Shown in pieces: positions 7,971 through 28,787 of a stretch of 64,000 nucleotides of DNA (positions are counted from its first letter, which is position 1; the number at the start of each line of letters is the position of its first letter). The stretch lies in NCBI GenBank assembly GCA_965200875.1, contig OZ241456.1, positions 896,001 to 960,000 of the forward strand, read 5' to 3'. Below the pieces are notes generated by a model, which was not told the origin of the DNA, made no database searches, and was given only the letters and a program-made list of their open reading frames with translations. The position numbers and the translations under genes are program-made. This DNA comes from Bdellovibrionales bacterium. Lineage in GTDB: Bacteria > Bdellovibrionota > Bdellovibrionia > Bdellovibrionales > UBA1609.

Positions 7971-9845
7971 ATGTTTAAAAGTGATTATCTTATTCTCATC
8001 GGACCGCCTAATAGTGGAAAAACCACTCTTTTTAATTGGATTACAGGTTATAAAAGGCAGACAGTCAATTATCCTGGTTCCACAGTAGACCTTTCTTTTG
8101 GTTGTATTCGCCAAAAACACGGAGCTTGTACATGGAAAATAGTGGATACTCCCGGTATATACAGTTTTTTGTCTTCATCCCCGGAAGGAGAGGTAACAAA
8201 AAATATTTTGAAAGATTCCATTAAAAACCAAGAATTGCAGGGTGTGATTTTGGTATTGGATGCCACTCGTTTGGAACGACAACTACCTTTTGCCTTTCAC
8301 CTGCGGGAAACAGGTTTGCCTGTTATTCTAGCTTTAAGTATGTATGATATTCAAAAAAAAGAATCAGAATTAGATATTTCTTTATTATCACAAAAGCTGG
8401 ATATGCCCGTATATCCCATTGAGGGTTTGTTGGGTGGAGGAGTAACAGAGCTATTGAACAGGGCTTTTACTCAATTTAAAAACAAGCCTCTGTCCTCTAT
8501 ATTCTCGTCTTCCTGGTCTGAAAAGCAACAGGAAAGTTACTTGAAAAAGGCGAAGAAAACAGTATCAGCTGTTTCTTTGAAGAAAAGTAAATCACAAATA
8601 GGCAAAAAAACGCAATGGCTGGATTCTTGGTTTTTGCACCCCATAGTGGGGTTTGGTCTTCTGTCTTTGATTCTTTTTATGTTTTTTTCCAGCATTTTCT
8701 GGCTGGCTCAACCCCTGATGGATTTAATAGACAGCGGTTTTAGCTGGGGAGTGGAAAGTCTTTTACAATGGGGGGGGGATAATTTCCTTATGAACTTTTT
8801 GGCCAATGGAGTTTTAACCAGTTTTGGAGCTTTTATGGTTTTTATTCCGCAGGTTTTTATTTTGTTTGTGGGTATTTATCTCCTAGAGGATAGCGGATAT
8901 TTGGCTCGAGCGGTAACCTTGGTGGATGGACCTTTCTCCCGTATTGGTTTAAGTGGAAGGTCTCTTTTTCCTTTTTTATCAGGTTTTGCCTGTGCCATTC
9001 CGGCCACATTGGCCACTCGATCCATTTCCTCTAAGCGGGAACGTTGGATTACTATTTTCGCGCTTCCATTTATGACTTGCTCTGCTCGTTTACCGGTTTA
9101 CGCGCTGTTGCTCAGTTTTTTGTTTTATGATGAATCTGCATGGAAACCAGGTTTGGTAATGTCTGTTATTTACTTTTTGTCTTTATTGCTGGGTATTTTA
9201 TCATCTGGGTTGCTGAATCTTTTTCTAAAAAAAGATAACCCCTCTTCTTTTTTTATGGAGTTACCTCTTTATCGCCGTCCGGTTTTATCCAATGTTTTGT
9301 TTTCCTCTTGGTCGCGCACAAGGCATTTTATTAGGAAAGCCGGACCGGTTATTTTTACTTTTGCTTTAATTATGTGGGTGGCAACGCATTTTCCACGCCA
9401 CCTTGAGCTAAAACCGGAGGAGCAGATTCAAAAAAGTTATGCCGGTCAATTTGGGCAGATGATTGAGCCGGTTTTTGAAAAAATGGGAGGAGACTGGAGA
9501 GTGGGGGTGAGTTTGTTATCTGCCTTCGTGGCCAGAGAGGTTTTTGTTTCCGTGTTGGCGGTGAGTTTGAAAAACACACAAGCAACAACAGAGATGGAAG
9601 ATTCTGCTGAAGTTTCTTTGGTGCAAACCATGAAAAGAACCAAGCTTTCTGATGGAAAACCTTTGTTTTCCAGAGCAAGCATATTGGCTCTGTTAGTGTT
9701 TTTTATGTTTTCTCTTCAGTGTCTTTCTACAACCGGAGTGGTGTATAAGGAAACAGGGTCTTGGAAATTTGCCGGTGCTCAGCTTATAAGTCTTAACCTG
9801 TTGGCTTATGTTGGAGCTGTATTGACTTACAATATATATTCCTGA
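7971..9845 (+). CDS. feoB: Ferrous iron transport protein B
   Basis: GPPNSGKTTLFN, VNYPGSTV, DTPGIYS, LEDSGYLAR, PFMTCSARLP, FFMELPLYR, AREVFV. Confidence 0.96.
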   Translation: MFKSDYLILIGPPNSGKTTLFNWITGYKRQTVNYPGSTVDLSFGCIRQKHGACTWKIVDTPGIYSFLSSSPEGEVTKNILKDSIKNQELQGVILVLDATRLERQLPFAFHLRETGLPVILALSMYDIQKKESELDISLLSQKLDMPVYPIEGLLGGGVTELLNRAFTQFKNKPLSSIFSSSWSEKQQESYLKKAKKTVSAVSLKKSKSQIGKKTQWLDSWFLHPIVGFGLLSLILFMFFSSIFWLAQPLMDLIDSGFSWGVESLLQWGGDNFLMNFLANGVLTSFGAFMVFIPQVFILFVGIYLLEDSGYLARAVTLVDGPFSRIGLSGRSLFPFLSGFACAIPATLATRSISSKRERWITIFALPFMTCSARLPVYALLLSFLFYDESAWKPGLVMSVIYFLSLLLGILSSGLLNLFLKKDNPSSFFMELPLYRRPVLSNVLFSSWSRTRHFIRKAGPVIFTFALIMWVATHFPRHLELKPEEQIQKSYAGQFGQMIEPVFEKMGGDWRVGVSLLSAFVAREVFVSVLAVSLKNTQATTEMEDSAEVSLVQTMKRTKLSDGKPLFSRASILALLVFFMFSLQCLSTTGVVYKETGSWKFAGAQLISLNLLAYVGAVLTYNIYS

Positions 9846-9968: not shown

Positions 9969-10670
9969 TCAGTCAGTGTCAGCACTTGTCCCTGTCTCTT
10001 TACTGTTTGTTTCTTTACTCTTTTGTGGAATATAAGACACAGTAACATGAGGATACTCCTCTCTAATGCGACTGACTTCGGTATCGGAAAAATAATTCAT
10101 TGTTATCCAAACACGCTTTAAAGCAGTAAGTCCGTCAAAAATACCTTCAGGTAAGGTGGTTAAATTATTGTATGCCAAACTAATTTCCTCTAAAGCAGTA
10201 AGTCCGTCAAAAATACCTTCAGGTAAGGTGGTTAAACCAGCATTGTGCAATTTAATGTTCTTTAAACCAGACAAACCACTAAAATCACCAGTTTTTAATG
10301 TGGTTTTATCCCTACTGGAATCTACCAGCCAGATTGCTTCTAATTTTTTTAAATCTTTTTTTGTAAGAGTTTTGCAGGCTTCGGGCCATGATCTATCAGG
10401 GGAAGGGACAAGATTAGATACTATCAAAGTTCTAATTAATTCGGTTCTATCGCAGACCTCTACAAATGTGACAGTGGGTGGGTTTGGACTTGCACCAGTG
10501 TTAGGGTTAACACCTGCCCCCGTGTTAGCACCTGCTGTGGTTGCTCCGGCTGGGGTTGAACCTGCGCCCGCGTCTGCACCTGCTGTGGTTGCTCCCCTTG
10601 AACCACTGTCTTTTTTTTCACAACCTAAAAAACATAAGCTTAAAAACAATAAAGCAATTATAGTTTTCAT
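9969..10670 (-). CDS. Leucine-rich-repeat lipoprotein with Gly/Ala/Thr-rich linker
   Basis: Lipobox FLGC; GATTAGA linker; 24-aa LRRs (LTTLPEGIFDGLTAL x2); identical 46-bp DNA at 10119 and 10191. Confidence 0.85.
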   Translation of the reverse strand: MKTIIALLFLSLCFLGCEKKDSGSRGATTAGADAGAGSTPAGATTAGANTGAGVNPNTGASPNPPTVTFVEVCDRTELIRTLIVSNLVPSPDRSWPEACKTLTKKDLKKLEAIWLVDSSRDKTTLKTGDFSGLSGLKNIKLHNAGLTTLPEGIFDGLTALEEISLAYNNLTTLPEGIFDGLTALKRVWITMNYFSDTEVSRIREEYPHVTVSYIPQKSKETNSKETGTSADTD

Positions 10671-10726
10671 AAAATACTCCTTTTAGTTTAATTTGAAAAA
10701 AATCCCGTTTTAATCAGGACACTCCC

Positions 10727-10753
10727 AGACTAACGGGGGGGGGTAAAAGTCAA
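10727..10753 (-). promoter_or_regulatory. Sigma70-like promoter with C9 tract in spacer (TTGACT-N15-TAGTCT)
   Basis: Minus strand reads TTGACT TTTA C9 GT TAGTCT; same as 16061-16089 except for tract length. Confidence 0.7.
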
Positions 10754-10775
10754 GAAATATATTCATAAAAACAAA

Positions 10776-10931
10776 CTGGAAGGCATACAATAAGGCATGC
10801 AAAAAGGTTGTCAGGAAGGTCAAAAAGAGCTGATCGCAAAATTGCTTAAAAGTGGAGTGGATTTGCAGGCTCTTTGCCAAGGCACAGGGCTTTCTGAACA
10901 GGAAATCAAAAAACTTAAGAGTGGTGACTAA
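10776..10931 (+). pseudogene. C-terminal remnant of an Rpn/YhgA-like (PD-(D/E)XK) protein
   Basis: Own translation LEGIQ*GMQKGCQEGQKELIAKLLKSGVDLQALCQGTGLSEQEIKKLKSGD*; same tail pattern as the 32260 ORF; internal stop. Confidence 0.65.
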
Positions 10932-11194
10932 GCATTATAGATGAAAGACCAATATCACCTTTTGGAAAGTACATGAAAAAAGTAAGGAGTATGTGCTTCA
11001 TAGCAAGTATGGAGTTTAAAGCCCTTTTTATGGAGAGTTTGCAGTTTTTTCAGCAAACAGGCATTATTGGGTCGGCAGGAAAATTCAAAATCTTCTAAAA
11101 AAATTAAATTTTTTTTTACGATAAAAGCCGATTAACTTTAAAGACCATAAATCTTAATAAGGAAATAAATGTGAAAGAAATCCAAAGAAAAATC

Positions 11195-11503
11195 CTATCT
11201 ATGGTTATCACTTTTCTGGTTGGAAACAATATTCATTAGATCCTGAAGTATGTTTTTAATATTTTCCTGTTCCACTGTTACATTTGATATCTCTGATTCC
11301 ATGCGCTTTTGATTGTTTTTTATCTCTGATTCCATGCGCTTTTGATTGTTTTTTATCTCTGATTCCATGCGCTTTTGATTGTTTTTTAAAGGGTCAATCT
11401 TTGCATTCAACAAAGAATTAAAACCTACAAGTAAAAAAGACAATGTAATAACAACAACAACAACAGTCTGTAAAACTACAGGAACATCTGATAAAATTTC
11501 CAT
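11195..11503 (-). CDS. Small membrane-anchored coiled-coil protein with 11-aa tandem repeats
   Basis: AGGAGG RBS, N-terminal TM helix, KNNQKRMESEI x3. Confidence 0.7.
   Translation of the reverse strand: MEILSDVPVVLQTVVVVVITLSFLLVGFNSLLNAKIDPLKNNQKRMESEIKNNQKRMESEIKNNQKRMESEISNVTVEQENIKNILQDLMNIVSNQKSDNHR
11288..11386. repeat. 33-bp coding tandem repeat x3
   Basis: TATCTCTGATTCCATGCGCTTTTGATTGTTTTT at 11288, 11321, 11354. Confidence 0.95.
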
Positions 11504-11595
11504 AAAACCTCCTTACTGATATAGCCATAATGTAAGTATACCATATTATATCATAAGATCATATTGATTATTTTTTTTACGACATAGCTTTAGTG

Positions 11596-13041
11596 TTAAC
11601 GGGTTCTGAGTTGAAAAATCATATTGACATACTGTCGGGAGTAAAAGCGGTATCTCAGAACATTTAATGTATTAGTTCTGTTTTTGGAAAGTCGCCTTTG
11701 AACATCCCTCGCAGATTGAACCTGCCAGCCATTGACTTTTAAAATAATATCCTTTTTCCTGAACCCAGAGAAAGCGGCGGGGGATCCGGGTTTCACTTCT
11801 GTCACTATGGGGTGATTACGATTTAAAGGTGGCATTCCCATTGACTTCATCACTTCTTTTGTTCCGGTAACCATTACAAGTCCCAAGTTAAAAGGTGCCT
11901 TCTTTTTACTGCCTGTAGATGGGGCTGTTTGCTCATTTTCCGCCAATATCTGCTTTCTTTCCGCGACAGTAATATCCATCTTTATTTTTCGTTTATTTCT
12001 GATGATTTCCATTGGAACAGTTTGATTTACAGGAGTGGAGAACACAGCTTTAAAGAGATCCCTGTAGGTTTTGATTTTCTTTTTATTAAAAGATACAATA
12101 ATATCCTGTTTTTTTATACCAGCTTTTTCCGCAGGAGAACTTGACATAACTTCCATAATAAGTGCTCCCGGCTGGTTTTTATCCCTGCTTTGAGCCATCT
12201 GTACTCCGATATAACCTCCTCTCACTCTTCCGTATTTTTCCAAATCCTTTAATACCACTTTTACATTGTCAATGGGTATGGCAAAGCTGATTCCCTGCGT
12301 GCGCATGGCTGTGTTAACACCAATGACTTCTCCTCTGGTGTTCACTAAAGGCCCGCCGGAGTTTCCAGGGTTGATAATGGCGTCTGTTTGCAAAAAAGGA
12401 AATAAGTTCAGCTCGTCAATTTCACGATTTACGGCAGAGATAATTCCTTTGGTCATGGTGTGTCCGTGTCCGTAAGGGTTTCCAAAAGCAGCCACCCATT
12501 CTCCCACTTGTAATTCATTACTATTGCCCAATCGGGCTGTGGGCAATGGCTTGTTTATTTTAATTTTAATAATGGCAATGTCTGTATTTTCATCTTTGCC
12601 TATTACTTTGGCTTTGTAGATTGTTGAATTGTCTTTTAGTTGAACCTGAATGGTGTCCGCTTTATTGATGACATGGGTATTTGTGAGGATCAGGCCATTG
12701 GATCGAATGATAAAACCAGTGCCCAGAGAATGAAGAGGTTGGGCTTTGGGAGGTTTTGCATGAGGAGCGAGAAAGAAATCAAAAAAAGGATCATTAAAAT
12801 AAGGAAAAGAGGGTATGTTATTCAGCTTGGTTGTGGAGATATTAACCACAGCGGGGTTGATAATTTTTGCCAGTTTAATAAAAATATCAGCAGGTAAGGG
12901 TTCACCAGGCTTGAGTTTTTCAATCAGAGGTTTGGCGATCAGATGATTTTGGTATAAAAGAAGACCTTTACCAAAGCAAAAAACAGATATAATAAAAACA
13001 GATGTAAAGATTTTTGTTTTTTTTGAAAAAAGTATTTTCAT
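11596..13041 (-). CDS. htrA: HtrA/DegP-family serine protease with PDZ domains
   Basis: SLGTGFII, LTNTHV, TDIAIIK, LQTDAIINPGNSGGPL, two PDZ-like segments. Confidence 0.93.
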   Translation of the reverse strand: MKILFSKKTKIFTSVFIISVFCFGKGLLLYQNHLIAKPLIEKLKPGEPLPADIFIKLAKIINPAVVNISTTKLNNIPSFPYFNDPFFDFFLAPHAKPPKAQPLHSLGTGFIIRSNGLILTNTHVINKADTIQVQLKDNSTIYKAKVIGKDENTDIAIIKIKINKPLPTARLGNSNELQVGEWVAAFGNPYGHGHTMTKGIISAVNREIDELNLFPFLQTDAIINPGNSGGPLVNTRGEVIGVNTAMRTQGISFAIPIDNVKVVLKDLEKYGRVRGGYIGVQMAQSRDKNQPGALIMEVMSSSPAEKAGIKKQDIIVSFNKKKIKTYRDLFKAVFSTPVNQTVPMEIIRNKRKIKMDITVAERKQILAENEQTAPSTGSKKKAPFNLGLVMVTGTKEVMKSMGMPPLNRNHPIVTEVKPGSPAAFSGFRKKDIILKVNGWQVQSARDVQRRLSKNRTNTLNVLRYRFYSRQYVNMIFQLRTR

Positions 13042-13080
13042 AAGTATATTCCTTGTGGTTTTTTTTTCTTGAAGTTATTT

Positions 13081-13362
13081 TTATTCCTCATTTGCTTGTT
13101 GAGAAAAAGTAATTTGCAGATCTTGTATAGAGTTATCCAATAACTGTTTTTCCTCTTCTGTTAAATTGCCCTTGGTTTTTTCTCTCAGCAAGAGCAGTAG
13201 CTCAATGTTAAATTCCGCAAGCGTTGTGTTTTTTTTGCTCTTTATTTCCGGTATAAGCCCCATTGCGGCTAGGGCAGAATGCGTGAGAGAATGAACAAGG
13301 GTGGAAAAAACCGGTGGATCCATTTTTGTATTTTGTTTGTTTGTTTGTTTTTCTGGGTTCAT
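13081..13362 (-). CDS. DUF1844-like protein
   Basis: FSTLVHSL..SALAAMG...A.FNIELL.LLREKTKGNLTEEE..LL pattern. Confidence 0.8.
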   Translation of the reverse strand: MNPEKQTNKQNTKMDPPVFSTLVHSLTHSALAAMGLIPEIKSKKNTTLAEFNIELLLLLREKTKGNLTEEEKQLLDNSIQDLQITFSQQANEE

Positions 13363-13422
13363 ATTTCCCCTTTGATGTTAAAATTTTATTTTTCCCTGTG
13401 TAAAAAATGTTTGAGTGATTCA

Positions 13423-13611
13423 TCAAGTCGCCATATATGTTTTAAAATATACAAAATAGGGCATGTTGTCAAACTGAAAAACAAGCCCAAATAGAAAAAT
13501 AACAATTAGAACAAATATCCCAAACATCCATTTTAAAAATTGTATTCCAGCAACACACTCGCCGACTTTTTCAAGTAAATACCCTTGAGTATTATTTTTT
13601 TCTTTATTCAT
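13423..13611 (-). CDS. Small membrane protein (GIQFLKWMFG), possibly a remnant
   Basis: 62-aa ORF with one hydrophobic helix. Confidence 0.4.
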   Translation of the reverse strand: MNKEKNNTQGYLLEKVGECVAGIQFLKWMFGIFVLIVIFLFGLVFQFDNMPYFVYFKTYMAT

Positions 13612-13854
13612 ATATCATTTTCTTTATTTTGGCCGGCTTTGTTATAAATTTTCTTATAAAGAGATTCTTCGTACTTATCCATAGCATCAACACTCAGAGG
13701 TTTTTTGAAAACAGGTTTTTCATTATCATCTAGAATATTAAAATCTCCGTCCTTTGAAATATTCGGTTGTTATGGCTCTCATCAGTGTTATTTTAATTCT
13801 TTATCTTCAATAATAATCCTATAGATTATATTCCACAGTAAAGTGTTTATTCTT

Positions 13855-14722
13855 TTATATGTCTTCCCCAGGATCGTCATCAACAACAACAAAACCACCT
13901 ACAAGTCGTGAGGTTAAATAAGTTGCCAATTCTGGGGTAACTTTCGCACCGAACAAAACCACAAAGTTTAACTCCGCACCTGTTAAATTCGCGCCTCTAA
14001 AATCCGTAAAGCTAAAATCCGCCCCGGTTAAATATCGCTCCTCGCAGATCCGCCCCAGTCAAATCCGCCATTTGCAAATTCGCATTGTGCATATTCGCAT
14101 TTCTCAAATTTGCCTCTTGAAAATTCGCCCCGTACAAATTCGCGCCTCTAAAATCCCCTCCTTCAAAATTCACCCCATTCAACTTCCCCCTGCCACTAAA
14201 ATCCGCGCCGCTAAAATTCGCCCTAGTAACAACCGCCAGTGTCCATTTCACACCTTTAAAATTCGCCCCTTCAAAATTCGCCCCTGTCAAATCCGTATTA
14301 CGCAAATTCGCCTTGGATAAATCCACCTCGTACAAATTCGCCCTGTTCAAATTCGCCCCGTACAAATTCGCCTTGGATAAAGCCGCCCCGTCCAAAACCA
14401 CCAGGTACAAATTCGCCCATTGCAACTTCGCCCATTGCAACTTCGCCCTAGATAAATCCACTAGGTACAAATTCGCCCATTGCAACTTCGCCTTACTCAA
14501 CTTCGCCCATTGCAACTTCGCCTGGGATAAATCCACCCCAGTCAAATTCGCCCCTCTCAAATCCGCCCCGTATAAATTCGCCTCGTATAAATTGCACTGA
14601 TGGTTTCTAGGCGTATAGATATAGTCTCGATAATTATCAATATTACAGGTAGACTCAGCCTCATTCTGGCCATAGCTCAAAGCACCTAAGCTTAAAAACA
14701 GTAAAGCAATTATCAAATTCAT
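13855..14722 (-). pseudogene. Secreted pentapeptide-repeat protein with a +1 frameshift near 14030
   Basis: MNLIIALLFLSLGALSYG leader, A(N/D)LxG repeats; past the 14012 stop another frame continues LTGADFSFTDFRGANL...GAKVTPELATYLTSRLVGGFVVVDDDPGEDI* to 13855, matching paralog C-termini. Confidence 0.8.
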
Positions 14723-14935
14723 TATTTACCTCCTTTGTTTAGTTAGGTTCTTTACATAATACAGGTGTTTATGAAAAACACTTAATAAAAAAACAAACCC
14801 GTGAAATCTTTATACGCCTGTAAAACAAACAACTGGAATCATAAAGAAAGGGTGGCGACTTTCAATCGCGAAAAAAAAAGGGGGGGGGTCCATCTTTTTC
14901 TCTACTCAAAACTGTAAAAAAAGCCAGTTTTGGGG
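14723..14935 (-). repeat. About 210-bp upstream element (copy A), inverted homolog of 16990-17199
   Basis: Shared blocks CAGTTTTG, TAGAGAAA, GATGGAC-poly-C, CGCGATTGAAAGTCGCCACCCTT(T)CTTTATGATT, AGTGTTTTTCATAAA, TGTATTAT, GAGGTAA.TAATG. Confidence 0.8.
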
Positions 14936-15012
14936 TTATGGTTGTTTGTTTTATGGTATAAGGGAAAAACTGGATAGTTAAAACTATTTACAGCTAAACA
15001 GGAATATTCAGC

Positions 15013-15849
15013 TTAGCGGAGTAATATTATCTTTTTCACATACTCTGCAAAATCTTTCAAATTACTTCTAGTAGCCTTTTCAAAACCAATAAAATCATTT
15101 TGCATCATTCGCTGGATCACAGGCTTAGATGATGCTCCTAAATATCCCTCCACATACTCTACTACTTCTTGTATTTTACTTTTACTGGTACTTGAAAAAG
15201 CAACAAGATTCCTTTGCATCATCTCCTGGATAACTGGCTTAGATGATACTCCTAAATATCCTTCCAAATACTCTATTACTTCTTGTATTTTACTTTTACT
15301 GGTACTTGAAAAAGCAACAAGACTCCTTTGCATCATCTCATGGATCACTGGCTTAACTGGCTTAGGTGATGCTCCTAAATATCCTTCTTTTCCACCAAAG
15401 TAAATATGCAAATATGTAATCACGTCCCTTATATCTTCCACATTACCACGATCAAAACCACCCAAACTTCTATTTAAACGCTTAGTAACGCCATCAATCC
15501 CTATATATTCCTCATATAGACTCACTCTATCTTTAAAACTTACATAACTCATCATCCAAAAATAAGAAGTAGTCTTGATTCTTTTTAAAGTCTGTTTCAC
15601 TCCAATTCGCGCCTCCATTTCTTCCAAAAAACTTTTTGCATCTTCAGCGGTCCAATTTCCTTTTTTCAAATATGTGCTAATCTTTTTCTCCCAAACAGTT
15701 CCAAAGCCACCTTGATTCTTATTTGCAAAATTGATAAAAACTTCTCCCGGAGAGGAGAAAGCCAATACACAAGGGAAAACCAAAGGAGCATAGCTAATGG
15801 AATAAACAAATATAATTAATAAGAAAAACCTATGAAAAATAAACAACAT
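15013..15849 (-). CDS. Hypothetical exported protein with about 38-aa helical repeats
   Basis: Hydrophobic N-terminus; MMQRxLVAFSSTSKSKIQEVxEYxEGYLGxSSKPVI repeats with 114-bp DNA period. Confidence 0.75.
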   Translation of the reverse strand: MLFIFHRFFLLIIFVYSISYAPLVFPCVLAFSSPGEVFINFANKNQGGFGTVWEKKISTYLKKGNWTAEDAKSFLEEMEARIGVKQTLKRIKTTSYFWMMSYVSFKDRVSLYEEYIGIDGVTKRLNRSLGGFDRGNVEDIRDVITYLHIYFGGKEGYLGASPKPVKPVIHEMMQRSLVAFSSTSKSKIQEVIEYLEGYLGVSSKPVIQEMMQRNLVAFSSTSKSKIQEVVEYVEGYLGASSKPVIQRMMQNDFIGFEKATRSNLKDFAEYVKKIILLR

Positions 15850-16060
15850 AATATTAATCCTTATAGTTTATTGTTATTTTTACAGCATTATATGAGAAAC
15901 ACTAAAAAAAACATAGCTCTAAAAGGTAATAGTGTAATCTTTACACGCCTATAAAAAAAGAGGATAGTACTAAGAAACGACTCATTAAAAAAGAATACTG
16001 TTTATTAAATTGCAAACCCGTAAAACCCTTTGTGTCTATTTGTTTTTCTGAATTTATTTA

Positions 16061-16089
16061 TTGACTTTTACCCCCCCCCCCGTTAGTCT
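16061..16089 (+). promoter_or_regulatory. Sigma70-like promoter with C11 tract in spacer (TTGACT-N17-TAGTCT)
   Basis: TTGACT 16061-66, TTTA, C11 16071-81, GT, TAGTCT 16084-89; 60 bp before ATG 16150. Confidence 0.75.
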
Positions 16090-16149
16090 AGGGGTATCCC
16101 GATTAAACGGGATTTTTTTCAAATTAAAAATTATTAAAAGGATTATTTT

Positions 16150-16830
16150 ATGAAAACTATTATTGTTTTATTGTTTTTGAGCTTATGTTTTTTAAGTTGT
16201 GAAAAAAAAGAGGCAGGTTCAACTGGTGCCGGATCAACCACCGCCGGGGCAACCACCGCCGGAGCTGACACGGGAGCAGGGGCAACTACCGCCGGAGCTG
16301 ACACGGGAGCAGGGGCAACCACCGCCGGAGCTGACACGGGAGCAGGGGCAACTACCGCCGGGGCAGGTGCTCAATCAGGTACATGTGTGCAACAGGGAGC
16401 AGTTATTCAGAGTGCAACACCCCCAGTATGTAATATCAATAATTATAAAGACTATATAAAGCAACCGGGAAACCATAAATGTAATTTATCAGGCGCAAAT
16501 TTGTCCGGTTTGGCCGGTAATTTTAGAAATGCGAATTTAAGTGGTGCGAATTTTAGCGGTGCGACATTGGTCGCGACTGATTTCCGTGGTGCGAATTTTA
16601 GCGGCGCGGATTTTAGTGGTGCGAATTTGCAATGGGCGAATTTTGCAGGGGCGGATTTAACCTGTGTGGATTTTAGCAATGCAGATTTGATCCGTGCGGT
16701 TTTGACTGATGTGAATTTAAGTGGTGCGAATTTTAGCGGGGCGACCTTTCACAAAACGAGAGTTGATCTGGAAGGGGAGACTTATTTAACCTCAAAGGGT
16801 ATAAGTGGTTTTGTTGTTGAAAATGAATAA
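16150..16830 (+). CDS. Pentapeptide-repeat lipoprotein with GATTAGADTGA linker repeats
   Basis: Lipobox FLSC; 33-bp repeats 16246-16362; CNI..Y..YI..PGNH.C cap; ANFSG repeats; YLTS.G.SGFVV end. Confidence 0.88.
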   Translation: MKTIIVLLFLSLCFLSCEKKEAGSTGAGSTTAGATTAGADTGAGATTAGADTGAGATTAGADTGAGATTAGAGAQSGTCVQQGAVIQSATPPVCNINNYKDYIKQPGNHKCNLSGANLSGLAGNFRNANLSGANFSGATLVATDFRGANFSGADFSGANLQWANFAGADLTCVDFSNADLIRAVLTDVNLSGANFSGATFHKTRVDLEGETYLTSKGISGFVVENE

Positions 16831-16881
16831 ATAGTTTTACTGCCTAACAAAGCAGTAAAATTTTCATATAATCCTTTTTTG

Positions 16882-16918
16882 GCGAAAAGCTTGTCTATCT
16901 CAGACGGGCTTTTTCGTT
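16882..16918 (+). terminator. Rho-independent terminator
   Basis: AAAAGCTTGTCT-loop-AGACGGGCTTTTT downstream of the 16150 gene. Confidence 0.7.
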
Positions 16919-16989
16919 TTGAGAAAGGGAATCATAAGCAACCAGGGTCAGTTATATATCGCTTTTAGGGGTGCACATTTTCCCCCGGG

Positions 16990-17199
16990 CCCAAAACCCC
17001 CTTTTTGTGCAGTTTTGGTTAGAGAAAGAGATGGACACCCCCCCCCTTTCGCGATTGAAAGTCGCCACCCTTCTTTATGATTTCCTTATTACTATTTTTT
17101 TTAAACCTCTATGTAAATATTACACAGGTTATTTTTTTATTTAGTGTTTTTCATAAAATCATGTATTATTCAAAGAAACGAAAAATGAGGTAACTAATG
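16990..17199 (+). repeat. About 210-bp upstream element (copy B) ending at ATG 17197
   Basis: Inverted homolog of 14723-14935; C9 tract at 17038-17046; RBS GAGGTAACTAATG identical to that of the 18547 gene. Confidence 0.8.
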
Positions 17200-18522
17200 A
17201 GTTTTTCTGCGAATTTTACAGGTGCGAAAGTGGTTCGTCTGGACGGACCAGATTTGCTAATAGATTGTGTTTATTGATAGTCTGGAATTCCTCATAATAA
17301 GCTTAACCTGTGGTAAGTGGCTGGTCTCGGCATTTTCTACTAATTTTAAGCTAGGTTTTTGTAAATTAAAGGTATAAAAAGTATGTCTGAAAATCAAAGC
17401 CGTAAAATTGTGATTTCTGGTGGAAATAAGCCTAATATAGATTTTGGAAGTTTTGAGCGCGGTCTGGCTGAAATCCAGACTCCAGCTCAAGCTTTTGAAA
17501 AAGTGAAAATCCTTGAATCTATCCAAAGTGCACTTTCAGGCTTTCAAAATTCTTTTGAGACAGAGTTTAAGATATCTGAATACAAAATTCGTTATGATAG
17601 AAAATTGTGGAATTTACTTTGTGAGACCAATCTCACATCTGTGGAATTGGCCAAAGCTTTGAATAAAAAGAAGTCAGATGATGCCTGTAGATTTAAAGAG
17701 GATTTAAAGAAAGCTTATGGCGAAAAATCTGATGATGATATCCAGGTTTTGATTAACTTATCTTATGAAAAGGGAAAACCCTTAACCCGTGAATTTTTTA
17801 AAAGTTCTGGTAAATCCGGCTTTGGCGTGAAGAAATCTGGCCAGCAAGAATGGTTCACTCCCCGCTGGATATATGAGCGCGCTAGACATATTATGGGTTC
17901 AATCGATTTGGATCCAGCCACCTCTCAAAAGGCAATCAATATGGGCAATATAGCCAATCGGTATTTTATGAAGGGAGATAATGGGTTAACGAAAGCATGG
18001 AATACAACAAATAAAAGCAATATTTTTATAAATCCGACTTATACAATTCCATATTTTAAAACAAAGATTATTAAAAATAAAACAGTGAAACGAATCTCAT
18101 CAGATAGTGTATGTCAGGATTTCTTGAGTAAACTACTACGGAGTGAGTTTAAACAATGCGTGTTTATAACGCCACAGCGGAGTGAAACCTATTATGGGCA
18201 GTATTTACATAAATTGGCCAATGTTTTCTTTTTACAGCAAGGCCGGACAAAGTTTCACAAAGATGGAAGTGCTGATAAACAACTCCCTCCTGATCCAAGT
18301 ATAATCTGGGGAATATGTGTTGATCCTTTAAAATTCTGGCTGGCATTCAAAGATTTTGGTCATGTTGAGTGTCGATATAAAAACTTTAATCAGCTGAAAG
18401 CAGAATGTGAAGAGAGATGGAGTGAAATCGATTTATGGACTGCACAGCTTGAGAAACTACCAAAGCCTTAATGATTATCTTTAAAAAGCTAAAGTGGTTT
18501 TGTTGTTGTTGAAAATGAGTAA
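17197..18522 (+). pseudogene. Split remnant of a pentapeptide-family gene flanking the inserted methyltransferase
   Basis: 5' piece MSFSANFTGAKV (17197-17232) and 3' piece SGFVVVENE* (18493-18522) match the family C-terminus. Confidence 0.6.
17383..18471 (+). CDS. Phage-type DNA N6-adenine methyltransferase domain fused to an unknown N-terminal domain
   Basis: EWFTPRWI...IDLDPAT...DNGLTKAW...IFINPTY (NPPY-like motif). Confidence 0.75.
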   Translation: MSENQSRKIVISGGNKPNIDFGSFERGLAEIQTPAQAFEKVKILESIQSALSGFQNSFETEFKISEYKIRYDRKLWNLLCETNLTSVELAKALNKKKSDDACRFKEDLKKAYGEKSDDDIQVLINLSYEKGKPLTREFFKSSGKSGFGVKKSGQQEWFTPRWIYERARHIMGSIDLDPATSQKAINMGNIANRYFMKGDNGLTKAWNTTNKSNIFINPTYTIPYFKTKIIKNKTVKRISSDSVCQDFLSKLLRSEFKQCVFITPQRSETYYGQYLHKLANVFFLQQGRTKFHKDGSADKQLPPDPSIIWGICVDPLKFWLAFKDFGHVECRYKNFNQLKAECEERWSEIDLWTAQLEKLPKP

Positions 18523-18546
18523 AAAAAGAAAAAAAGGAGGTAACTA

Positions 18547-19239
18547 ATGAAAGTTATAATTGCTTTATTGTTTTTAAGCTTAGGTGCTTTGAGCTATGGT
18601 CAGAATGAAACTTATCCAACATGTAATATTGATAATTATACCAACTACATAAATAAGCCCGGAAATCATCAGTGCTATTTAAGTGGAGCGACTTTTTACG
18701 AGGAGGATTTGTCTGGTGCGAATTTGCAAGGGGTGGATTTTACAGGCGCGTTTTTAATCAGAGCGGATTTGACCAATGCGAATATGAGCGGAGCTGATAT
18801 AAGCGGGGCGGATTTGTTCGAGGCAGACTTGACTGGGGCGAATTTGTTCATGGCGAATATGAGTGGAGCGAATGTAATCAGGGCGGATTTGACTGGTGCG
18901 AATTTGCATGAGGTGAATTTTATCCTGACGAATTTGTTCGAGGCGAATATGAGCGGAGCGAATATGAGCAAATCTACTTTAATTGAGGCATTTTTGGTTA
19001 GATCGAATATGAGCGGAGCGAATTTGTGGTGGGCGGATTTGACTGGTGCGAATTTGTTTGAGGCAAATATGAACGGTGCAGATTTGCGCCATGCAAATTT
19101 TACCGGTGCAGATTTGCGATTTGTAAGTTTGACCAGTGAGTATTTGCACGGAGCGATTTTTACCGACGCGAAAGTTGATCCAGGTTTGGGGGGGTATTTA
19201 ACATCACAAGGAGTGAGTGGTTTTATTGTTGTAGAATAA
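18547..19239 (+). CDS. Secreted pentapeptide-repeat protein
   Basis: MKVIIALLFLSLGALSYG leader, CNIDNY..YI..PGNHQC cap, ADLTG/ANMSG repeats. Confidence 0.9.
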   Translation: MKVIIALLFLSLGALSYGQNETYPTCNIDNYTNYINKPGNHQCYLSGATFYEEDLSGANLQGVDFTGAFLIRADLTNANMSGADISGADLFEADLTGANLFMANMSGANVIRADLTGANLHEVNFILTNLFEANMSGANMSKSTLIEAFLVRSNMSGANLWWADLTGANLFEANMNGADLRHANFTGADLRFVSLTSEYLHGAIFTDAKVDPGLGGYLTSQGVSGFIVVE

Positions 19240-19255
19240 AAAAAGTAGATAAGTT

Positions 19256-19759
19256 ATGAAAGTTATAATTACTTTACTGTTTTTAAGCTTAGGTGCTTTG
19301 AGCTATGGCAACAATATTCTCCATAGTATTGATCATTATAATAAAGATGATAAACCAGATATAAAAAAGCCACGCAGAAATCCTAAGTGTGATTTGAGCT
19401 ATGCGAGTTTGCATGATGTGAGTTTGCATGATGCGAATTTTACCGGGAGGGATTTGAGTTATTGTAATTTTAGCTGGGAGAATTTTAGCTATATGGATAT
19501 GCGTGGAGTGAATTTGACGGGGGCAATTTTTATCGGTGCGGATTTGAGTTATACAGATTTTACAGATGCGAATTTGCAGTTGGCGAATTTGTCCTTTGCA
19601 AATTTGCGAGGGGTGAATTTTACCGGTGCAGATTTGCGATTTGTATTTTTGACAACGGAGCATTTGCACGAAGCGAACTTTACCGGCGCGAAAGTCACAG
19701 AACAATCAGGAAAACTTTTAACATCACAAGGTATAAGTGGTTTTGTTATTTTGAAATAA
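19256..19759 (+). CDS. Secreted pentapeptide-repeat protein
   Basis: Same leader, ANFTG/ADL repeats, LTSQGISGFV end. Confidence 0.88.
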   Translation: MKVIITLLFLSLGALSYGNNILHSIDHYNKDDKPDIKKPRRNPKCDLSYASLHDVSLHDANFTGRDLSYCNFSWENFSYMDMRGVNLTGAIFIGADLSYTDFTDANLQLANLSFANLRGVNFTGADLRFVFLTTEHLHEANFTGAKVTEQSGKLLTSQGISGFVILK

Positions 19760-19867
19760 AGTTTACTTTGGTTCTTATATAATATTCATCCTAATGTTTT
19801 TATCTTGCTTCTGTAAAATAACTTGGACACTTGTAGCTTGGTGATATGATAAACTACAGAGGAAGTT

Positions 19868-21577
19868 ATGCCATTACTGGATTTTAAAGGGAAGTCTGTT
19901 GTTTATTCGCATCATTTGGAAGTTCCTTTTCGAATGTTCAAAATTGACGAAAAAAAATCCAGCACTTTGTCGCCTGACTTGAAAAACAAACCAAACAAAC
20001 AGTGCAAATCTGACAAGCTAGGTAAAACTGACAGAGAGCGAAATACCGTCAGTACCAGCAAACCCAGCCTAGATGACAACTTAATCATTCACGGCGACAA
20101 CCTTCATGCCCTGAAGGCTCTTTTGCCAAGGTACTCTGGTAAGATCAAATGTATCTATATTGATCCACCCTACAATACTGGAAACGAAGGTTGGAAATAC
20201 AACGACAAGGTCAACAGCCCCCTTATACAGGAATGGCTAAAGCAAATCGGCATCGGTGTGGATGATCAGGAAAGACATGACAAATGGCTTTGCATGATGT
20301 GGCCCAGATTGCAACTGCTTAAAGAACTACTTGCTGATGACGGAGTGATTTGTATTAGTTGCGATGATACAGAAATTGGTAATTTAATATGTATTCTTAA
20401 TGAAATTTTTGGAATTGATAACAAAGAAGAAATTATTGCCTGGAGGAGGAGACACAATCAACCTAATGATAAAAGTAAACCTATAGCAAAAACCGCAGAA
20501 TTTATTGTAATCTATGCTAAAAATCTTGAGCTTTTAAAAAAGAAGAAATCATTTAACGGACTACCTCTCACTGGCAACTTTATCAATTCTGATAAAGATC
20601 CTAAAGGGCCTTGGGCATCAAAACCTTGGAAAGCCGGCAGGAATCAAACCGGCAACAGGTATAAAATCACTACTCCCACGGGGAAAGTATATGATGAAGA
20701 ATGGTTAGGCACTAAAAACACCTTTGATTCTCTGTTAAAAGATAAGAGAATTATTTTTCCTTCCCACGGAAAGGGATTGCCAAGAAAAAAATATTATCAA
20801 TCAGAGAGGAAGTCAGAAGGTCAAGTGGCACATAACTTTTGGAGTCATAAAAAGTTTGGGTCAAATCAAAATGCTTCAAAAGAAATTTATGAAATGGGTA
20901 TTGCCTTTGATAATCCTAAACCTTCTCAGTTAATTAAGTCTATACTTTTAATATTTTCTAACAAAGACTCCATTATCCTAGATTCCTTTGCAGGTTCTGG
21001 AACAACAGCCCATGCAGTTCTTGCCCTCAACAAAGAAGACGGAGGTCACCGCAAATTCATTCTGGTTGAATGTGAGGATTACGCAAGTGACATTACAGCA
21101 GAGCGTGTCCGCCGGGTGATTAAAGGTGTTCCTAAAGCTAAAGATGAGAATTTAAAAAGAGGGTTTGGAGGTTCTTTCACATATTGTTCTCTTGGGGAGA
21201 AAATCAACACAGAAAATATGCTAAGAGGAAAACTTCCTGACTATACACAGCTTGCAGAATATATCTTTTATACAGCAACAGGAAAGAGCCTCAATGTAAT
21301 TGAAAAAGTCAATGCCTCTTGGTTTATCGGTGAAACGGAGAAGTATAATTTTCACCTTGTGTATAAGCCTGATTTGAAGTTTTTGAAAAGTAAAGAAAGT
21401 GCCTTGCACTTGGATCTTGCGGAGACAATACAAACACTCAACAAAGAGTCAAAAAAAACCAGTTTGGTTTTTGCTTCGGCAAGCTATATCCCGCAAAAAA
21501 AACTTAAACAAAAATACAACATTCAATTTTGCCAACTGCCATACACTATACATAAGATTATGGAGACTCGCCCGTGA
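19868..21577 (+). CDS. mod: Type III restriction-modification methyltransferase (Mod)
   Basis: NLIIHGDNL.ALKAL, IYIDPPYNTG, HDKWLCMMWPRL, DSFAGSGTT; followed by res. Confidence 0.93.
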   Translation: MPLLDFKGKSVVYSHHLEVPFRMFKIDEKKSSTLSPDLKNKPNKQCKSDKLGKTDRERNTVSTSKPSLDDNLIIHGDNLHALKALLPRYSGKIKCIYIDPPYNTGNEGWKYNDKVNSPLIQEWLKQIGIGVDDQERHDKWLCMMWPRLQLLKELLADDGVICISCDDTEIGNLICILNEIFGIDNKEEIIAWRRRHNQPNDKSKPIAKTAEFIVIYAKNLELLKKKKSFNGLPLTGNFINSDKDPKGPWASKPWKAGRNQTGNRYKITTPTGKVYDEEWLGTKNTFDSLLKDKRIIFPSHGKGLPRKKYYQSERKSEGQVAHNFWSHKKFGSNQNASKEIYEMGIAFDNPKPSQLIKSILLIFSNKDSIILDSFAGSGTTAHAVLALNKEDGGHRKFILVECEDYASDITAERVRRVIKGVPKAKDENLKRGFGGSFTYCSLGEKINTENMLRGKLPDYTQLAEYIFYTATGKSLNVIEKVNASWFIGETEKYNFHLVYKPDLKFLKSKESALHLDLAETIQTLNKESKKTSLVFASASYIPQKKLKQKYNIQFCQLPYTIHKIMETRP

Positions 21578-21605
21578 AATTAGAAAAAAAATCAAGGAGC
21601 TTTAA

Positions 21606-24068
21606 GTGGAGTTAAAAGATTATCAGATAGTAGTTATAGACAAGCTTTCTGCCTATCTGAAGGTGCTTAAAGAAACAAAAAGAAACACTTTGATTATGGC
21701 GGAATCAAGAAAAAACAGAGGGCTTTCTGTATCTTGGAATTCAGACAATTTTAATTTTTGCAAGAGAGCCTGGGACAACCTGAATGGGCGAAGATTACTT
21801 CCTCTTCTTTCTGCAAAATCGGGCAATATCATTTCCTCCTATAAAAGTCGGTTCAGTGGGATTGGTCGCCCGGTTCCAAATGTATGTCTCAAAGTTCCCA
21901 CAGGAGGAGGGAAAACTCTTCTTGGTGTGGGTAGTGTGGAAAGAATCAACACAGATTTTTTTGAAAGAAACACAGGTTTTATCTTGTGGGTGGTGCCCAG
22001 TGAATCCATTTACCAGCAAACTTTAAAAGCACTGTCCAACAGAGATACTCTTTATCGGCAAATACTGGATCGTGCTGGCGCAGGTGGTGGGAAAGTTAGA
22101 ATTTTACAAAAGACAGATAGTTTTCATCCGCGGGATGTGGAAAGTTCTCTATGTGTCATGTTGGTAATGCTTCAAAGTGCCGGAAGGCAGTCAAAAGAGA
22201 CTTTGAGGATATTCAGGGATTCTGGAAAATTCCCTCTGTTTTTCCCGGAAATTGATAATTATCATGCCAATCAAAAACTTCTTGAGGTCTGTCCTAATCT
22301 TGATACTTACAGCTTGGAAGATTGCCGTTTTGCTGGTGGCTTAAAAAAAATCAGCTTAAAACAGAGCTTGGGCAATGTTTTAAAACTTACTCAGCCGGTG
22401 GTGGTTATTGATGAAGGACACCGGGCTTATACGGAGAAGGCAAAAAATGCTATAATGGATTTTAACCCTCGGTTTATTTTGGAGCTTTCAGCCACTCCCA
22501 ATAAAAAGGAGCATAAGAGCAATGTTTTGGTTTCTGTTTCGGGAGCTGAGCTAAAAAAAGAGGAGATGATAAAACTCCCTGTAAATATTTTTAGCTTGAA
22601 AAATAAAGATTGGAAAAAGACTTTGGCCAAAGGACATGAGGTTTTGTGTGGTCTTTCAAAAGATGCCATTCGACTTCAGAAAAAAGAAAAACGCTATATC
22701 CGCCCCATACAGCTTATAAGGGTTGAGAGAACAGGCAGAGATCAAAGAGAAAAAAAGTTTATTCACTCAGAGGATGTAAGGGAGTATTTGATAAAGAGTT
22801 TTAATGTGGATCCTGCGGAAATCAAAATTAAATCCGCCTCACAAGATGAGCTGAAAAATGAAGACCTGCTTTCTGAATATTCTAGGGTTCGATACATTAT
22901 TACAAAAGAAGCTTTAAAGGAAGGCTGGGACTGTCCCTTTGCCTATATCCTGACAATTTTATCCAAAACAAAAGCCCCTTTGGCCATTGAACAGATGATA
23001 GGGAGAGTTTTAAGACAGGCGGATACACAGAAAACCGGTATGGAATCTTTAAATCAGTCCTACATTATTTGTAGGGATCAGGATACAGCAGGGGTTGTGG
23101 AGGGGATAAAAAAAGGCTTGGAAAATGAGGGGATGGATGGCCTTGGAAGAGAGGATATAAAAGAGCCTATAAAATTGAAAAATAATAAAAGCCAAAAGAA
23201 AGTGATAAAAAGAAGAAACCCTTTTGGAGATTTAAAAATCTTTTTACCAAAGGTGCTTTGTAAGAGAGGAAACAATTTAAAGGAATTGAGTTATGAAGAG
23301 GATTTACTTTTTAATATTGACTGGTCAAAATTGACATTGAATGAAGACCTGCTTTTAAAGGAAAAAGTCCCGGATATATCCTATACACAGGTTGATATAA
23401 AAAAACAGATGGATCTAATATCCTCTTTTCATAGGAAAGAAGAGGAAACAGTGTTTGAGGATACTGATCTTGCAAATTTTAACCAGGATTTTAGTTTTAT
23501 GTGTCAAAGGCTTTCCGATATTGTGCCTAATGCTTGGGATGCAAGTGCTATAATGGATAAGGTTCTTTCTTCTCTAAAGAGGAAACATGGAAAAGAAAAA
23601 GTTTGTTCGAACAAGTTTCGCATTTTGGATTTTTTGAGAGATAATCTTCAGAGTCAAATAAGCCGAGAGGTGGAAAAAATTTTTAAGAAGAAGCTGAAAA
23701 ATCACGAGTTTGTATTTAAACTGGTAAGTGTGGGAGAATCGGATTTGAACTGGAAAATGGCAGAAACTTTAAATCTCTCTCTTTCACAAGGTGGTTCTGT
23801 ATTCAGGAAAACAGACGACAAAGACTTACAACTTTCACTGTTTGAAAATGTTTATAAAAAAGAAATTAAGTTTAAGGATTTGGAAAAAAAGGTGTCTTGG
23901 TATTTGGATGAGGATTCCACTATAAAATGGTGGCACTGGATTATAAAAAAGAGGAAGGACTGGTTTATACAGGGCTTGCAAAAGAATAAAATCTATCTGG
24001 ATTTTTTAGTTTGTGTCAAGTCGTCTAAAAATGGCAAGGCTACTTTTTCTATTCTGGAGACCAAATAA
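21606..24068 (+). CDS. res: Type III restriction endonuclease (Res), apparently C-terminally truncated
   Basis: LKDYQ, VPTGGGKT, IDEGH, ELSATP, LKEGWDCP, EQMIGRVLRQ; ends at YLDF...ILETK*. Confidence 0.88.
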   Translation: MELKDYQIVVIDKLSAYLKVLKETKRNTLIMAESRKNRGLSVSWNSDNFNFCKRAWDNLNGRRLLPLLSAKSGNIISSYKSRFSGIGRPVPNVCLKVPTGGGKTLLGVGSVERINTDFFERNTGFILWVVPSESIYQQTLKALSNRDTLYRQILDRAGAGGGKVRILQKTDSFHPRDVESSLCVMLVMLQSAGRQSKETLRIFRDSGKFPLFFPEIDNYHANQKLLEVCPNLDTYSLEDCRFAGGLKKISLKQSLGNVLKLTQPVVVIDEGHRAYTEKAKNAIMDFNPRFILELSATPNKKEHKSNVLVSVSGAELKKEEMIKLPVNIFSLKNKDWKKTLAKGHEVLCGLSKDAIRLQKKEKRYIRPIQLIRVERTGRDQREKKFIHSEDVREYLIKSFNVDPAEIKIKSASQDELKNEDLLSEYSRVRYIITKEALKEGWDCPFAYILTILSKTKAPLAIEQMIGRVLRQADTQKTGMESLNQSYIICRDQDTAGVVEGIKKGLENEGMDGLGREDIKEPIKLKNNKSQKKVIKRRNPFGDLKIFLPKVLCKRGNNLKELSYEEDLLFNIDWSKLTLNEDLLLKEKVPDISYTQVDIKKQMDLISSFHRKEEETVFEDTDLANFNQDFSFMCQRLSDIVPNAWDASAIMDKVLSSLKRKHGKEKVCSNKFRILDFLRDNLQSQISREVEKIFKKKLKNHEFVFKLVSVGESDLNWKMAETLNLSLSQGGSVFRKTDDKDLQLSLFENVYKKEIKFKDLEKKVSWYLDEDSTIKWWHWIIKKRKDWFIQGLQKNKIYLDFLVCVKSSKNGKATFSILETK

Positions 24069-28628: not shown

Positions 28629-28787
28629 TTTTATCTTCTCAAAATTATAAATTTTTGAGAAGATGAGCAGATATATGTTCAAAAACCGGCAATTTTGAGA
28701 AGATGAGCGGATATATGTTCAAAAACCGGCAATTTTGAGAAGATGAACAGATATATGTTCAAAAACGAGCATTTTTGAGAAGATAAA
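28629..28787. repeat. 40-bp tandem array (3.3 copies) plus an inverted half-site, upstream of the Fic gene
   Basis: Units A(T/A)TTTTGAGAAGATGA(G/A)C(A/G)GATATATGTTCAAAAAC(CG/GA)GC at 28651, 28691, 28731, partial at 28771; inverted ATCTTCTCAAAA at 28633. Confidence 0.93.

Follow-up and report, generated by a model that had tools for sequence, protein, structure and literature searches.

The LRR and pentapeptide lipoprotein loci

We analysed a window of 64,000 nt from an uncultured Bdellovibrionales bacterium (contig OZ241456.1, positions 896,001 to 960,000, assembly GCA_965200875.1), in which two lipoprotein genes are each preceded by a promoter-like cassette with a run of C's between its predicted boxes. 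The host genome (G000) comprises 1.87 Mb at 37% GC in two contigs. Positions are those of the window unless prefixed C1, which denotes its contig in that genome. The first gene (9969-10670, minus strand) is an open reading frame (ORF) for a leucine-rich repeat (LRR) lipoprotein of 233 aa (Pfam LRR_8, E 2e-11; lipobox FLGC, Cys17). The second (16150-16830, plus strand) is an ORF for a pentapeptide-repeat lipoprotein of 226 aa (Pfam, E 5e-27; lipobox FLSC, Cys17).

Above the LRR gene lies TTGACT-TTTA-C9-GT-TAGTCT (10727-10753, minus strand), with a predicted -35 box (TTGACT, 10748-10753), a C9 tract (10735-10743) and a predicted -10 box (TAGTCT, 10727-10732) that together give a 15-bp spacer. 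The pentapeptide gene is preceded by TTGACT-TTTA-C11-GT-TAGTCT (16061-16089, plus strand), in which the predicted boxes (16061-16066 and 16084-16089) flank a C11 tract (16071-16081) and the spacer is 17 bp. These are the only two matches to the motif in the window, and none of 100 shuffles yields any. A ribosome-binding site (AGGAG) was identified at 10677-10681 on the minus strand. Also present at both loci is a 6-bp hairpin followed by a T-run (10702-10720, minus strand; 16096-16113, plus strand, -8.2 kcal/mol), which begins at the predicted +1, exactly 7 nt below the -10 box.

The original prediction, made from the letters of the window, had proposed this promoter-like sequence at both loci and spacers of 15 and 17 bp, and we find each exactly as described, in sequence, strand and coordinates. 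It had also held that the sites differ only in tract length. The core bears out this likeness, but the likeness is not restricted to the 27-29 bp of the core. Repeat analysis and alignment place both sites in one shared module of ~190 bp, which begins in A/T-rich sequence upstream of the -35 box, takes in the ribosome-binding site and extends into the signal peptide (10591-10775, minus strand, an inverted copy of 16039-16229, plus strand). Of 195 alignment columns, which start ~20 bp above the -35 box and reach into the signal-peptide region, 166 are identical (85%).

A dispersed cassette family

The two candidate promoters had been described as a pair. A genome-wide motif search shows instead that they are two members of a family with six pure-tract copies: C9 at C1:851136, 861305, 906727 and 1181574, C10 at C1:1252019 and C11 at C1:912061. 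Two further copies have a C tract interrupted by an A and a 16-bp spacer. Each of the six pure copies is found between genes on the sense strand, with a start codon 50-69 nt downstream. The eight target genes all begin with a signal-peptide-like sequence and encode six pentapeptide proteins, the LRR protein and a Cys-rich protein; the pure copies alone precede genes of no fewer than three unrelated kinds. Runs of nine or more G or C number 23 in this genome, vs ~2 extrapolated from short runs.

Predicted promoter elements and spacer preference

The role assigned to the boxes comes from a census of 1056 upstream regions of this genome, using the pattern TTGAC.-N-TA...T and excluding poly-C spacers. 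Spacers of 17 bp were the most frequent (n=19), followed by 18 bp (14), 16 bp (12) and 15 bp (7). With the mean of the eight outer spacings (6.75) taken as background, 17 bp has a Poisson p of 8e-5 and 15 bp one of 0.51. On the antisense strand, 17-bp sites were likewise raised in number (10), which divergent genes would produce. The identical two hexamers flank a plain 17-bp spacer before an unrelated gene at C1:888415. In the congener G009, 12 of 58 near-consensus sites are at 17 bp and 3 at 15 bp, in a total that is not above the reversed control. A narrower census of TTGAC/TAG..T sites returned too few to read. The preference of sigma70 for about 17 bp that the original prediction had cited has a counterpart in this organism, where the census optimum is 17 bp and 15 bp is at background.

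A generic promoter scan did not return the two window sites because it accepts only spacers of 16-18 bp with at least 9 of 12 matching positions; the three sites that it did return were no more than expected by chance. We identified three sigma70-family genes (Sigma70_r2) in the genome, of 616, 258 and 295 aa, and they read as RpoD, FliA-like and RpoH-like factors. None of the Sigma70_r2 matches is the size of an extracytoplasmic function (ECF) sigma factor, in a first-pass search that a divergent one could escape. A sigma32 reading of the cassette (with a -10 element of CCCCATNT) was rejected, as it would leave only 9-11 bp between the boxes and is inapplicable to the poly-G cassette described below.

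The hairpin below the -10 box has a similar stem in six of the eight copies in this genome, with one pair showing a two-sided change, and is absent from the copies in G009. Possible roles are those of a protective 5' stem, an operator or an attenuator.

Tract-length variation

The tract changes length where its flanks do not. The copies at C1:851136 (C9) and C1:1252019 (C10) are duplicates, identical over the 203 bases before and the 240 bases after the tract, and differ by one C. Contigs from run X1, possibly the source of the assembly, have C11 at the pentapeptide locus; among them C9 occurs in four contigs and C10 in one. In runs X2 and X4, both from another study than X1, the LRR locus has C9, and X2 also has C11 at the pentapeptide locus. 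The X4 contigs break within the latter tract: one stops at 16080 and its neighbour begins at 16072, both carry ten C's, and no contig covers the whole tract.

In a run labelled sponge metagenome (X5, from a further study), a related strain with pieces ~95-99% identical carries a C8 family copy; no copy in G000 has this length. Elsewhere, tracts are C8-C9 in G009 and G7-G14 in a second congener, G010. The tract is long enough to slip (C9-C11) and is polymorphic between copies and strains. All five genomes checked have intact mutS and mutL.

One contig of run X6, which aligns to 16047-16079, has a C9 cassette with a -10 box one base short that runs directly into pentapeptide-like coding sequence. 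This junction is absent from G000. X6, like run X7, shares few sequence words with the genome, and neither run was counted as evidence of habitat.

Cassettes in related genomes

An exact-motif search of 40 relatives gave no match, and the copies in G009 surfaced only with looser queries. This congener has five pure poly-C copies in which TTGAC(A/T) and TAGTCT are kept and the other spacer bases vary. Their spacers are 15, 15, 15, 16 and 14 bp, and one interrupted copy is at 16 bp. A pattern scan with one genome per species returned these five copies and one Microcystis match. Scanning Joint Genome Institute (JGI) metagenomes with the pattern gave 12 loci, none similar to G000 by BLAST and none with a pure tract, which were set aside.

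The cassette of G010 is a different one, TTGA(A/C)A-AAAAAT-Gn-TAAA(A/G)T, and its boxes are near the sigma70 consensus. A loose poly-G pattern gave 56 matches in this genome vs 1 for the reversed control. The 49 copies tabulated have spacers of 15 bp (n=32), 16 bp (11), 14 bp (4), 17 bp (1) and 22 bp (1), and 39 of them have G9. One pair differs in tract (G10 and G9) and is identical over the 33 bases before and the 150 bases after it. A crude signal-peptide filter passes 36 of the 45 readable downstream ORFs, vs 277 of 1520 ORFs in G000. Scanning 44 downstream proteins identified five with LRRs and 39 without a Pfam match. The five are homologous to the LRR protein of the window (best E 2e-24), and thus one LRR family lies behind poly-C in one species and behind poly-G in another. 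In G010 we also noted at least 15 small exported proteins (L043-L081) that form one Cys-containing family without a Pfam match, all of them behind the poly-G cassette.

In a search of 109 genomes of the family, 10 had the poly-G pattern and 7 the poly-C pattern, mostly as single matches near the control level. The G010-type cassette is present in G111 (five copies; 15, 14, 16, 14 and 15 bp) and in G063 (two copies; 15 and 14 bp), and single C9 promoters with 15-bp spacers occur in G061 and G063. These three genomes, of 1.4-2.0 Mb, belong to two other genera. Neither cassette was found in 11 of 14 congeners, and the trait is thus patchy. In another congener (G003:C1:98781-98809, L038), a G11 tract with a 17-bp spacer stands before a gene resembling that of a secreted subtilase precursor.

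A proposed slippage dimmer and its alternatives

We interpret the dispersed poly-C cassette as a slipped-strand phase-variation dimmer of the porA/vlp type, with graded output, and put the probability of this reading at roughly 0.78. A tract lies between TTGA(C/T)T and TAGTCT, 50-69 nt upstream of the start of each of six genes with export signals, and would gain or lose single C's and so shift the spacer among 15, 16 and 17 bp. The boxes would be read by the housekeeping sigma factor, which the census statistics suggest prefers 17 bp in this genome, and the spacer would thus set how strongly the downstream exported-protein gene is transcribed. The example of porA suggests that C11 would be a high, C10 an intermediate and C9 a low state. 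In this assembly, the pentapeptide lipoprotein would then be highly expressed and the LRR lipoprotein weakly. Nine bases may be the resting length, with most loci low and a locus turned up by one added base. The tract changes length faster than its flanks between copies and between strains, and comparable changes within a clone are predicted. The outcome would be a population whose cells display varying subsets of exported LRR, pentapeptide and Cys-rich proteins. What is observed is where the copies lie and how many there are, the class of their targets, the spacer counts and the differences in tract length among copies and strains; promoter function, the direction of the effect, switching within a clone and biological purpose are inferred from these.

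Four of six features of promoter-spacer phase variation by simple sequence repeats, the class to which porA, fetA and vlp belong, are present. A G/C tract lies between the boxes of a predicted promoter, which are backed by the census and by conservation in G009 and G010. The tract is of slippable length, it is polymorphic, and it appears to control exported proteins, judging from the lipoboxes of both window genes and from the signal-peptide-like N-termini in G000 (8 of 8) and G010 (36 of 45). The porA-like slippage switch of the original prediction is supported by the architecture, the 17-bp optimum in this genome, the fast change of the tract relative to the flanks and the exported targets. 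Its ON and OFF assignments and its random switching are predictions, and instead of two states in a pair of sites the evidence points to a dimmer of graded output, resting low and passing through a middle state at 16 bp, in a dispersed family. As mismatch repair is present, the two-step change from 9 to 11 should be rare, and the 16-bp state is probably the usual "up" state.

Several observations weigh against this dimmer. In X1 and X2 each locus has one length, and in contigs that span the tracts two samples, one of them possibly the source of the assembly, agree with it (C9, C11), so that no change at these two loci is seen. The contig break in X4, the only hint from within a sample, would fit reads that disagree in length, but at a depth of ~2 it may be sequencing error. 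The flanks of the C8 copy in X5 match no G000 copy exactly, so that it is at most a putative orthologue. With mutS and mutL intact, switching may be slow. The cassette stands before just 6 of 51 pentapeptide-like ORFs, as well as before the LRR and Cys-rich genes. The dimmer does not account for the terminator-like hairpin after the -10 box in both window copies. Finally, 15 bp is the commonest state and could for that reason be the working state.

This last point belongs to the likeliest of the alternatives, though we consider it unlikely: an ordinary promoter was spread by duplication, and its tract drifts neutrally, with length of little matter or with 15 bp as the working state. The 15-bp spacer is indeed modal (4 of 6 copies in G000, 3 of 5 in G009, 32 of 49 in G010), lengths are unchanged in contigs of the two samples, and any homopolymer mutates faster than its flanks. 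However, among ordinary promoters of this genome 15 bp is at background and 17 bp strongly enriched, and the G009 counts lean the same way. In three genera, two unrelated cassettes (poly-C and poly-G) have a nine-base tract that yields the 15-bp spacing ahead of genes for exported proteins. Copies with an interrupted tract also depart from 15 bp: the six seen, which were not systematically sought, have spacers of 16, 16, 16, 17, 17 and 15 bp (five of six at 16-17 bp). These copies are chance finds, two of them represent one event, and one lies in G010 before a gene without an export signal, all of which reduces their weight for the dimmer.

More improbable still is that another regulator (an alternative sigma factor, an activator, or a repressor or attenuator acting at the hairpin) reads the cassette, in which case the main control would lie outside the tract or the ON length would differ from 17 bp. 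The hairpin and T-run at the predicted +1 of both window copies, with their counterparts in most copies of the genome, would suit such a regulator. An ECF-like consensus reading would give C9 a 16-bp spacer. Against this, the three sigma70-family genes found by the first-pass search include none of ECF size, the hairpin is lacking in G009, and the G010 boxes are near the sigma70 consensus.

That the difference between C9 and C11 is a homopolymer error of a long-read assembly is very improbable. The assembly is in two contigs and X1 is perhaps its source, but independently built contigs reproduce C9 (X1, X2, X4) and C11 (X1, X2), which makes such an error unlikely, and tracts of 8-10 G/C in long conserved genes keep frame (e.g., the in-frame G9 of feoB, 8770-8778). 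Equally hard to credit is that the modules, 85% identical and in inverted orientation, bound a 5.3-kb segment that flips and swaps promoters between genes, since the remaining copies are spread along the chromosome, contigs pass through each of the two modules as assembled (the sole orientation among the matches listed), none of 15 joints (the best 15 of 60) links the two modules at matching positions, and no recombinase was found among the 11 of 22 ORFs scanned in 4-24 kb. Paralogues dominate these contig matches. An opposite-strand joint at 10627/16428 was considered as an inversion and rejected; it fits a paralogous gene with a signal peptide and pentapeptide repeats instead.

Comparison with known systems

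In Neisseria meningitidis, the poly-G tract of porA lies between the -35 and -10 boxes, and relative to 11G, 10G gives 2-fold less and 9G 13-fold less surface protein (PMC3639595). Like porA, and also fetA and opc, the cassette combines a G/C homopolymer of 9-11 bases in a predicted core promoter with an exported-protein gene and a host that has mutS (PMC3639595, PMC2791445). Unlike porA, one cassette is here copied before several unrelated genes, with most copies at the short length, in an uncultured Bdellovibrionales host.

Every vlp gene of Mycoplasma hyorhinis has a poly-A tract in its promoter, and maa2 of M. arthritidis and vmm of M. mycoides compare likewise (PMC10502178, PMC2268961). 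As with vlp, several lipoprotein genes would each have their own slippage promoter and be displayed combinatorially, although for the cassette this is a prediction. In contrast to vlp, the tract is C or G rather than A, the copies are dispersed rather than clustered and precede unrelated gene families, and G010 has ~50 loci. Nor does every member of one lipoprotein family have a tract promoter, given the small fraction of pentapeptide-like ORFs behind the cassette.

In Campylobacter jejuni, mutation bias keeps tracts at G9-G10 (PMC8355987). If a similar bias holds the tracts here at nine bases, then the resting length is the weak state by design. The C. jejuni phasome, as described in that source, resembles the present one in having many G/C tracts per genome that are centred on 9-10 bases. 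It differs in that its tracts are mostly inside reading frames and mismatch repair is missing, whereas here the tract is in a promoter spacer and mutS and mutL are intact. Bdellovibrionota with reduced genomes are known from a glass sponge, and "phase variation" does not occur in the main text of that paper (PMC9944714). Further papers add only general support (PMC5084427, PMC11868660, PMC12103780, PMC4577077). No report of such phase variation for Bdellovibrionales was found in the literature searched, a set that excludes most subscription journals.

The mechanism itself is textbook, and is known mostly from human and animal pathogens at one or a few genes at a time. Here it would take the form of a portable cassette in an uncultured Bdellovibrionales lineage, with one congener (G010) carrying ~50 copies that are apparently low by default and mostly precede genes for exported proteins of no known family. 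If the dimmer operates as proposed, tract length would be a readout of expression state directly from metagenomic reads, and the cassette would flag exported proteins under diversifying pressure in bacteria living in sponges. With ~50 natural copies at 14-17 bp, a single metatranscriptome would be enough to test the spacer-length rule.

A more tentative extension, which we rate somewhat below even odds, is a default-low expression lottery in small-genome, sponge-associated Bdellovibrionales. Poly-C and poly-G cassettes would have evolved separately, each with a resting length of nine that gives a crippled 15-bp spacer. Out of as many as ~50 unrelated exported proteins, each cell would raise a small set at random, and a gene would be locked on by a point change in its tract. 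If so, a predator lineage would have a transcriptional phasome of pathogen scale, directed at prey range, phage or host phagocytes.

Other tracts and neighbouring genes

A second poly-C family was identified in G000, in which a leader frame started by GTG or ATG lies ahead of prepilin-like motifs (C1:648900, 722866, 1303886, 29378, 868293, 1447917 and 1407444). The leaders at 648900 (C10) and 868293 (C9) are in frame, those at 722866, 29378, 1303886 and 1447917 are out of frame, and at 1407444 the leader ORF ends just before the pilin start. These frames agree with a translational switch at the pilin leaders. A truncated copy of the pilin leader, without a C tract and with no pilin behind it, is at 11154-11201 of the window. 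The longest G/C runs of the genome, C15 and C16, are near secreted protease genes (C1:805727 and C1:806889).

The region from 13870 to 19760 is a cluster of exported pentapeptide-repeat genes, with a Dam-family methylase gene (17383-18471) interleaved. Two of the pentapeptide genes are preceded by a third leader family, with C9 (14880-14888 and 17038-17046) just above a TTGAAA-15/16-TATGAT site; the C run is 5-9 long among more than 10 paralogous leaders. At 19868-24068, a methylase and a ResIII helicase form a pair like that of type III restriction-modification systems, where only G/C runs were checked as repeat tracts. Three tandem 40-nt repeats, each with an internal inverted repeat, were identified at 28632-28784.

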